NCBI RefSeq assembly: GCF_000027125.1
Contig: NC_017626.1
Strand: one strand, 5' to 3'
Length of the DNA stretch: 64,000 nucleotides
Source of the DNA: Escherichia coli 042
Lineage (GTDB): Bacteria; Pseudomonadota; Gammaproteobacteria; Enterobacterales; Enterobacteriaceae
Both the position numbers and the translations under genes were made by a program. This document shows, in pieces, positions 1,700-2,911 of the stretch (position 1 is the stretch's first letter; each line of letters opens with the position of its first letter). Under the pieces are notes generated by a model. It saw nothing but the letters and a program-made list of their open reading frames with translations. It did no database searches and was not told where the DNA came from.

Positions 1700-2067
1700 G
1701 GTGCCAGGTCGTTGATATCGCGGGTGTTAAACTCCAGCACGCGCAGGCCGTACTTCTCGTTGACCACCACCACTTCTGCTTTGCCCAGCAGGATATTGTT
1801 CACTTTAATATCCAGCGGCTCCCCGGCGAGTTTATCCAGCTCAATCACCGTGTCGTCGTCGATGTTTAGCAGGTCGGCTAACATAATTTCCACCGACGAC
1901 ACTTCCAGCGTTAAGGTCACCGGAATGCGTTTCAACAGCGTCATCGAGTCGGAAAAGCGGTCTTCCAGGCGGGTGACCAGCGTTTCAGCGTCGGCGGATT
2001 TCGCGACAGGCGCAACTTCATCGGTGAGGCCAAAATCCCCGGCTAAAATATCTTCTTGCTTACTCAT
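1696..2067 (-). CDS. lfiN: FliN homolog (C-ring/switch)
   Basis: C-terminal SpoA-like segment (LDIKVNNILLGKAEVVVVNEKYGLRVLEF); start set at internal ATG 2067-2065 (MSKQEDILAG) just after the lfiM stop; track ORF extends to 2127. Confidence 0.8.
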   Translation of the reverse strand: MSKQEDILAGDFGLTDEVAPVAKSADAETLVTRLEDRFSDSMTLLKRIPVTLTLEVSSVEIMLADLLNIDDDTVIELDKLAGEPLDIKVNNILLGKAEVVVVNEKYGLRVLEFNTRDINDLAP

Positions 2068-2911
2068 GGCTATTCTCATTTTTGCCCGCCAGCTCCGACA
2101 AAAACAGTTTGTCTTTGTCTTCCACAATCAGGGCGCTAAATAATTCAGATTGCCCAATCGCCACCGGGAACGTTTCTCCCAGCGAGATGGGTAAAATATC
2201 CCCGGCTTTTATCTGCGTGAGATCCGCGACATTCAGCGACAGCTCGGCGATTTTGACGTTCAGGGTCAGCGGCAGGGAGCGGATGATTTCTTTAATCAGG
2301 GCCGGTTTATTAACGGATTTCGCCACCTGCTGCGGTTTACTGTGCTCGCTGTGGCGGATCAGATTCAAAATAAAATCGGTGTGGGCGTCGTCGAGCAAAA
2401 TACGAAAACTGCTCTCTTCATCGTCCGCAAGGGTAAAGGTTAATTGATACGCCCAGTGGGTAATCACCGTGCTGCTGTCCAGTTTTAATTTCAGCGCAAT
2501 ACCGGAGGTTTGCAGATTAAATATCAGCGTGCAGATATCCAGCGCCAGACGGTTTTTTAAACGCGTTTCGGTTTTGGTCGGCAACCCGTTATGGGCTTTC
2601 GCCTCTTCAAGAGACGACTCCAGACCATAAAAATTGCCCAGCAGCATTAACAATAAGGAGCGATCAATATCAAACGCCAGATGCCCGACCTGGGAAACCA
2701 TCAGTTCGGCGTTTTTATTAATAATATCCATTTCGCAGCCAATCTTTTTTAAGGTGATATTGCTGCGATGCTTTTTGAGAAAGTAGCTGCCAAGATGCGA
2801 ATCAATCACGTCAAAATTCCCCGTAAACAGGGTCGGCAGGCGATGGTAGGGGCGTCCGAGCCGATTACCTTCTAATTTAAAGATGCCTGGCGTTTTACTG
2901 TACTTCAGCAT
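2060..2911 (-). CDS. lfiM: FliM homolog (switch protein), short form
   Basis: 283-aa ORF with FliM-like middle and C-terminal regions; upstream in-frame stop two codons before the ATG prevents any N-terminal extension. Confidence 0.8.
   Translation of the reverse strand: MLKYSKTPGIFKLEGNRLGRPYHRLPTLFTGNFDVIDSHLGSYFLKKHRSNITLKKIGCEMDIINKNAELMVSQVGHLAFDIDRSLLLMLLGNFYGLESSLEEAKAHNGLPTKTETRLKNRLALDICTLIFNLQTSGIALKLKLDSSTVITHWAYQLTFTLADDEESSFRILLDDAHTDFILNLIRHSEHSKPQQVAKSVNKPALIKEIIRSLPLTLNVKIAELSLNVADLTQIKAGDILPISLGETFPVAIGQSELFSALIVEDKDKLFLSELAGKNENSHE

Follow-up and report, generated by a model that had tools for sequence, protein, structure and literature searches.

Lateral FliM proteins have been described in Vibrio alginolyticus (FliM2, 272 amino acids), Vibrio parahaemolyticus (FliM_L, VPA1540), Plesiomonas shigelloides (FliM_L, 300 amino acids) and Shewanella putrefaciens (FliM2). 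Their function has been shown in Vibrio, Shewanella and Plesiomonas. The lateral motors of gamma-proteobacteria have been called non-chemotactic, with cytoplasmic rings (C-rings) that lost chemotactic ability and with lateral FliG and FliM placed on long branches; Ferreira et al. likened the lateral C-ring to the non-switching 'C-ring' of injectisomes (PMC8042155). Here, we describe LfiM, the FliM paralogue that belongs to Flag-2, the lateral-type flagellar system of Escherichia coli, as encoded in a 64,000-nucleotide stretch of E. coli 042 (contig NC_017626.1), referred to as the window. The gene and its locus are already known (Ren et al. 2005, as cited in PMC6993521 and PMC8042155); CheY and LfiM are not discussed in the main comparative paper on Flag-2 (PMC6993521).

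The lfiM gene occupies positions 2060 to 2911 of the window on the minus strand and encodes a C-ring FliM subunit of 283 amino acids, beginning with an ATG codon and the N-terminal sequence MLKYSKTPGIFKLEGNRLGRPYHRLP. The initial annotation had placed an open reading frame (ORF) of this length at the correct coordinates, leaving the strand unstated, and its claim that the frame cannot extend upstream is borne out. On the minus strand, the in-frame sequence preceding the gene reads AAG TAA GCC ATG (translation ...QQRK*AM), corresponding in plus-strand positions to TAA at 2915-2917, an Ala codon at 2912-2914 and the ATG at 2909-2911. As the TAA lies in frame two codons 5' of the ATG, no upstream extension of the ORF is available. 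RefSeq annotates the identical coding sequence as 'FliM/FliN family flagellar motor switch protein' (WP_000922504.1). The gene is divided into the following features:

2060 to 2911, minus strand: lfiM, FliM paralogue of the Flag-2 C-ring, 283 amino acids (ORF, RefSeq, hhalign, AlphaFold2, Foldseek, ratio of nonsynonymous to synonymous substitution rates, dN/dS).
2915 to 2917, minus strand: in-frame TAA stop that fixes the LfiM N-terminus, two codons upstream of the ATG.
2888 to 2911, minus strand: codons 1-8, MLKYSKTP, a basic octapeptide without canonical counterpart (unaligned by hhalign).
2837 to 2887, minus strand: codons 9-25, GIFKLEGNRLGRPYHRL, with the family signature L-(D/E)-P-x-x-L-G-R-P-x-H-x-L (hhalign).
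2312 to 2836, minus strand: codons 26-200, CheC-like FliM middle domain, strongly diverged (hhalign, Foldseek).
2105 to 2284, minus strand: PF01052 SpoA region of lfiM (28.7 bits; PDB sequence matches to Salmonella FliM 237-292).

LfiM lacks the N-terminal segment by which canonical FliM binds phosphorylated CheY (CheY-P). In a profile-profile alignment (hhalign) of the 102-sequence lateral family alignment (A2) with an alignment of canonical FliM (A3; 13 sequences, nine of them enteric), the two families are joined over 266 columns with a probability of 99.3% (E=1.2e-20), and LfiM residues 9-274 pair with residues 34-318 of E. coli FliM. Residues 1-33 of FliM, comprising the CheY-P docking peptide (1-16) and an acidic linker, have no counterpart in LfiM. 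In place of these ~33 canonical residues stand eight unrelated, unaligned residues (MLKYSKTP). LfiM residues 9-25 pair with FliM residues 34-50 in the L1 linker (residues 31-50), which lies at the FliM-FliN interface and is the point at which the modelled FliM of the Salmonella C-ring starts (PMC11087270). LfiM has this ordered L1 linker and starts eight residues before the position at which canonical FliM becomes ordered in the C-ring. What is absent is the flexible tether of ~33 residues, the first 16 of which constitute the high-affinity docking peptide for CheY-P and, in polar flagellates, for FlhG. Judged from the alignment, LfiM corresponds to canonical FliM minus little more than the docking tail and the acidic linker. 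In polar flagellates, FlhG binds to the EIDAL motif of this tail as well (bioRxiv 10.1101/2022.04.21.489128), which offers a further explanation of why the motif might have been lost from lateral paralogues in ancestors with both types of flagella.

A docking-motif score of 13 columns, built from five diverse canonical FliM N-termini, separates LfiM clearly from the canonical proteins. Canonical FliMs score 22.5-36 (leave-one-out), and the best score of LfiM is 0.6, located at residue 27 (shuffle p=0.41). The first 12 residues of LfiM carry a net charge of +3 and contain a Pro-Gly pair, while the canonical motif has a charge of -2 to -4. Both hhalign and the motif score therefore agree with the initial annotation that the LfiM N-terminus holds no LSQxEIDALL-type (EIDAL) motif, and no recognisable CheY-binding peptide is present in the first 20 residues. 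Across the 102 family members, the best score averages 2.7 with a maximum of 11.4, and only three reach p<=0.05, which is the level expected by chance. The N-termini of the other Flag-2 motor proteins do not hold the motif either (best internal scores at most 18), and a docking peptide relocated to the FliN paralogue LfiN, by analogy to FliY, or to another Flag-2 protein was rejected for lack of any N-terminal match.

Two local resemblances were considered and set aside. The likeness of 'YSQ' in related proteins to 'LSQ' does not hold, as the E. coli allele reads YSK, is followed by Pro-Gly, has the opposite charge and scores at chance level. In the lateral FliM of Pantoea sp. A4 (P0081), residues 10-22 (VYSANEVEEVIKI) reach a score of 11.2 (p=0.015), a value expected by chance in 102 tests. 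P0081 is the only family member with a faint EIDAL-like N-terminal string and, as such, the one protein of the lateral clade in which a vestige of the docking helix might be suspected.

LfiM is a bona fide, highly diverged FliM with ~15% identity to the canonical protein. Among curated models, PF01052 (FliMN_C/SpoA) matches residues 210-269 (28.7 bits against a cut-off of 23.8), and the FliM model TIGR01397 covers residues 163-262 only and stays far below its cut-off (28.7 against 219.6 bits). PF02154 does not match LfiM, and a profile of the Enterobacterales homologues aligns with the C-terminal part only of solved FliM sequences. Since the curated models recognise only the C-terminal SpoA part, membership in the FliM family is established by the profile-profile alignment and by the fold. 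The AlphaFold2 model of LfiM, built on A2, has a mean predicted local distance difference test (pLDDT) score of 88.7, and the PDB entries that Foldseek ranks highest for it are the FliM chains of Salmonella C-ring structures from cryo-electron microscopy (8umx_C, 8umd_C and 8wo5; E ~1e-10 to 1e-9, with 1.4e-10 for 8umx_C). These are followed by crystal structures of FliM middle domains (4fhr_A, 2hp7, 4fq0 and 4gc8; E ~6e-6 to 1e-5; TM-score by target 0.6-0.66) and, further down the list, by CheX/CheC and FliN/SctQ SpoA domains. LfiM accordingly combines a CheC-like middle domain fold with a C-terminal SpoA domain.

Compared with canonical FliM of E. coli and Salmonella (334 amino acids), LfiM retains the L1 linker, the CheC-like middle domain and the C-terminal SpoA domain in the same order and fold, with FliN as genomic partner and a FliG paralogue nearby. 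It differs in the absence of residues 1-33 and in two features of the middle domain. The GGXG motif, which marks the FliG-binding loop of this domain, is reduced to a single glycine: LfiM has F-Y-G-L-E-S opposite L-F-G-G-D-G, so that only the first Gly (G96) is kept, as it is throughout the family, where Y95 and G96 are conserved at ~91-92%. In addition, hhalign places a nine-residue gap in LfiM opposite FliM residues 92-100, where the LfiM model shows a tight beta-hairpin. This segment includes R94, which has been suggested to be key for the contact of CheY with the middle domain (PMC11087270). With the injectisome protein SctQ (YscQ/SpaO), LfiM shares the C-terminal SpoA domain and a weak match to NF005956. 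An assignment as SctQ was rejected, as NF005956 reaches 21.5 bits against a cut-off of 230 and TIGR02551 reaches 13.5 against 100.8; the fold matches to FliM chains are far stronger, and the genes of the locus, those for the stator among them, make up a complete flagellum.

The short N-terminus without the motif is a trait of the whole lateral family. A word-indexed homologue search reached Enterobacterales only; members from Vibrio, Photobacterium, Pseudomonas and beta-proteobacteria were recovered with an exhaustive profile search, which yielded 224 representative clusters at E<=1e-3. Named members belong to Enterobacterales (Citrobacter, Lelliottia, Rouxiella and Pantoea), Photobacterium, Vibrio alginolyticus and the harveyi group, together with Pseudomonas/Ectopseudomonas, Iodobacter and Chromobacteriaceae. 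Short lateral FliMs were defined by a length of ~270-300 amino acids and the L-(D/E)-P-x-x-L-G-R-P-x-H-x-L signature ~20 residues from the start. The 93 full-length representatives have a median length of 287, with the LG[RK]P signature at median position 23, and LfiM, with 283 amino acids and LGRP at residues 18-21, fits this definition. V. alginolyticus FliM2 (P0187, 272 amino acids; E=1.3e-7 in the profile search) is likewise devoid of the docking motif, and its length equals that of the 272-amino-acid fliM2 product listed for this species (PMC10956519). Among the profile-search hits, LSQxEIDALL is confined to the lowest-ranking ones, which are canonical FliMs. FliM2 of S. putrefaciens is also said to be without the N-terminal motif. 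LfiM resembles the described lateral FliMs in its length of 270-300 residues, its LGRP-type signature ~20 residues in and the absence of EIDAL, and it adjoins fliN and fliPQR-flhBA in a lateral cluster as they do (PMC4481668). It differs from the Vibrio and Photobacterium proteins in sharing only ~20% identity with them, and the Enterobacterales branch has a conserved N-terminal octapeptide of its own. The observation that LfiM lacks the docking peptide is correct, and the feature is ordinary for the family. The initial annotation was right to see a lateral FliM without the peptide, the locus being Flag-2; what does not stand is the suggestion of a peculiarity of this particular lateral motor.

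Within Enterobacterales, conservation along the protein is highest at the N-terminus. Mean column identity is 88% for residues 1-8, 93% for residues 9-25 and 67% for the rest. Residues 9-25 are also the most conserved segment in the broad family (62%); the signature spans residues 13-25, and among the 102 sequences L18 and G19 are invariant, with R20, P21 and H23 conserved at 90% or more. Residues 1-8 fall to 29% in the broad family as against 88% in Enterobacterales, where K3, Y4 and S5 are invariant (alignment A1). Because residues 1-25 are conserved best, the start codon is genuine and not an annotation artefact. Of 5426 complete E. coli genomes, 1291 contain the gene, with 1282 having it at full length. 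Four E. coli alleles with 96-100% nucleotide identity are all intact, and their dN/dS of 0.04-0.08, at dS up to 0.18, points to purifying selection and argues against decay as the cause of the truncation. Taken together, the motif-less short N-terminus is an ancient, family-wide architecture under purifying selection and not a local truncation.

The flagellar locus that holds lfiM also contains a fliN-like gene and the export genes fliPQR and flhBA. The gene order is flhA-flhB-fliR-fliQ-fliP-fliN-like-lfiM, followed divergently by a lafK-like sigma-54 activator gene and fliE to fliJ, and farther along by flgN to flgL, lafA, fliD, fliS, fliK, fliL, fliA, motA and lafU. The locus is flanked by yafL/rayT on one side and dinB on the other. 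The segment 1500-4500 of the window has 100% identity to several complete E. coli chromosomes, including the Flag-2 region of 118UI, and the RefSeq annotation of the identical locus lists no che genes within Flag-2. The cluster, which has lafK and lafA as well as motA/lafU stator genes of its own, is of the lateral type. Two further C-ring genes accompany lfiM:

1696 to 2067, minus strand: lfiN, FliN paralogue, 123 amino acids (PF01052 E=4.6e-19; TIGR02480 fliN 83.5 bits).
6264 to 7274, plus strand: lfiG, FliG paralogue and C-ring partner of LfiM (phmmer).

The ATG of lfiN overlaps the end of lfiM by 8 nucleotides at 2060-2067 on the minus strand (ATGAGTAA), so that translation of the two C-ring subunits may be coupled. 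In a program-made list of ORFs, lfiN reaches as far as a TTG at 2127; RefSeq and homology favour the ATG at 2067. LfiN keeps the EVVVV hydrophobic patch, with GEVVVVADKYG aligned to AEVVVVNEKYG of Salmonella FliN. LfiG matches V. alginolyticus FliG (8z4d) with E=5.8e-43 and Salmonella FliG with E=6.3e-37 (phmmer). Relative to canonical FliG, EHPQ is changed to EHLQ and MFVF to MYDF, and V-N-R-D-V stands opposite the Vibrio V-Q-P-S-A stretch, the equivalent of the PAA motif. Such changes at FliM-binding and switching motifs of LfiG, combined with the loss of most of GGXG in LfiM, look like co-divergence of partner surfaces.

We consider it most likely that the Flag-2 rotor, in which LfiM contributes CheC-like and SpoA modules and its SpoA domain pairs with LfiN, is un-switched for want of the CheY-P tether. 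Such a rotor would be unable to capture and concentrate CheY-P by the canonical 'fishing-line' route, and the Flag-2 motor, if expressed, would most likely run un-switched. The role of its C-ring would then consist of torque transfer and docking of the FliH/I/J export complex. If CheY still had some influence, it would have to be exerted at low-affinity sites, and a change of speed would be likelier than a reversal of direction. Data on relatives are consistent with this reading: CheY did not bind lateral FliM of Pseudoalteromonas in a two-hybrid assay (PMC10304486), and the lateral motors of S. putrefaciens are summarised as outside chemotactic control (PMC8203827, with reference to Bubendorfer 2012 and 2014).

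Several points weigh against an un-switched rotor. CheY slows the lateral motor of V. alginolyticus (Kojima 2007, as cited in PMC10304486), although FliM2 of this species is equally short and motif-less; loss of the peptide alone is therefore no proof of insulation from CheY. The patch kept in LfiN is listed among the CheY contacts of FliN (V113/V114/A115; PMC11087270), and the canonical reference alignment, with its few and largely enteric sequences, is small. Neither LafA protein nor Flag-2 motility was detected in the E. coli ST131 strain EC958 (PMC4637896), so that the behaviour of the motor under laboratory conditions may be moot. The either/or offered by the initial annotation, a motor not switched by CheY or one coupled through another surface, is reasonable in this light, as published data on relatives point both ways.

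One alternative is that CheY-P still acts on the Flag-2 motor, braking it or modulating its speed through secondary, low-affinity surfaces, either the hydrophobic patch of LfiN or the middle domain of LfiM. By analogy to V. alginolyticus, whose FliM2 shares the N-terminal architecture of LfiM, a low-affinity, speed-modulating coupling is possible for E. coli, and the EVVVV patch of LfiN would offer a contact. The middle domain of LfiM, however, has no counterpart to the 92-100 segment with R94, and the negative two-hybrid result in Pseudoalteromonas and the indifference of the S. putrefaciens lateral motors to chemotaxis also speak against it. The hydrophobic patch of FliN serves partners other than CheY as well, and its conservation is unspecific evidence for CheY coupling. 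We regard this alternative as unlikely.

A second alternative assigns a function to the basic N-terminus itself, which at lateral motors would bind a different regulator acting in place of CheY, for example a cyclic di-GMP-dependent PilZ brake. The octapeptide is strongly conserved in Enterobacterales and is predicted to be disordered, without secondary structure and with a pLDDT of ~57 in the AlphaFold2 model. The motif reads MLKYSQTP in Enterobacterales and is MPKS[KR][ILV][ILV]xP-like in a subset of relatives; a similar basic-hydrophobic motif occurs in ~17 of the 102 representatives, including Chromobacteriaceae, Pseudomonas and Iodobacter. PilZ-only regulators are known from dual-flagellated bacteria: MotL regulates the lateral motor of S. 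putrefaciens (PMC8203827), and in Pseudoalteromonas the lateral cluster codes for FilZ, which targets the polar flagellum by way of a CheW homologue (PMC10304486). Against this stand the variable, low-complexity N-termini found in most of the lateral FliM family, and we hold such a docking role to be distinctly unlikely. The broader scenario, in which the lateral FliMs of Enterobacterales, Chromobacteriaceae and Pseudomonas lost the acidic helix and gained a basic motif that recruits another regulator to the rotor, strikes us as similarly improbable. The motif could be a structural contact or the docking site of another regulator.

The remaining alternative, a short N-terminus produced by a mis-called start or by 5' truncation of a decaying gene in a silent locus, could draw on the frequent deletion or disruption of Flag-2 in enterobacteria (PMC6993521), on its lack of expression in EC958 (PMC4637896) and on the failure of curated FliM hidden Markov models, yet it is already refuted, with next to no probability left, by the upstream in-frame TAA, the conservation of the first 25 residues, the same length and architecture in 93 representative clusters from several orders and the low dN/dS of four intact alleles.

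Further features of the window concern the regulation and variability of the locus. The intergenic region between lfiM and lafK contains an inverted pair of repetitive extragenic palindromic (REP) elements at 3078-3165, resembling a bacterial interspersed mosaic element: TGCCGGATGCGGCGTAAACGCCTTATCCGGCCTAC, followed by GTAGGCATGATAAGACGCGGCAGCGTCGCATCAGGCA. Owing to this pair, a 3-kb query taken from here matched 5425 of 5426 E. coli genomes at ~150,000 places, as opposed to the 1291 genomes matched by lfiM alone. The LafK-like sigma-54 activator (3299-4279, plus strand) consists of 326 amino acids, with an AAA+ sigma-54 interaction domain from residue 6 and no receiver domain; LafK of V. alginolyticus is listed with 443 amino acids (PMC10956519). 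No remnant of a receiver domain is evident in the 387-bp region 5' of the lafK-like gene, where the three forward frames hold no long ORF.

Perfect matches to the sigma-54 promoter TGGCAC-N5-TTGC are located on the plus strand at 15580-15594, 38 nucleotides 5' of the flgB-like ATG, and at 28994-29008, 33 nucleotides 5' of the fliD-like ATG. Allowing up to one mismatch, nine sites are found across the window against 7.9 expected, which is not above chance. The lfiM-lafK intergenic region contains no sigma-54 promoter with the GG/GC dinucleotides kept and up to three mismatches, and the lfiM operon is therefore probably not dependent on LafK and sigma-54. The region ~10300-29100 is not collinear throughout with that of 118UI (NZ_CP032515.1): the fliD-like ORF starts at 29041 compared to a predicted 29166, which indicates an indel of ~125 bp between lfiJ and fliD relative to 118UI. 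The variable region of Flag-2 carries a large glycosyltransferase, a cytidylyltransferase and a RelE/ParE-HTH pair in this strain.

Divergent, non-chemotactic lateral C-rings have already been published, and lfiM provides a sequence-level confirmation for E. coli, not a new principle. The sole mildly new point is the basic N-terminal motif, conserved in Enterobacterales and common to a subset of relatives. In E. coli, the reference organism for CheY-FliM signalling, 1291 of 5426 complete genomes hold a second FliM, under strong purifying selection, that has no canonical CheY-P docking. If the Flag-2 motor is ever expressed, cells would possess two types of rotor, only one of them wired to chemotaxis, and would resemble the polar and lateral division of labour in Shewanella. 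Should the basic motif indeed recruit another regulator, roughly one E. coli strain in four would have a second C-ring that takes its input from outside chemotaxis.

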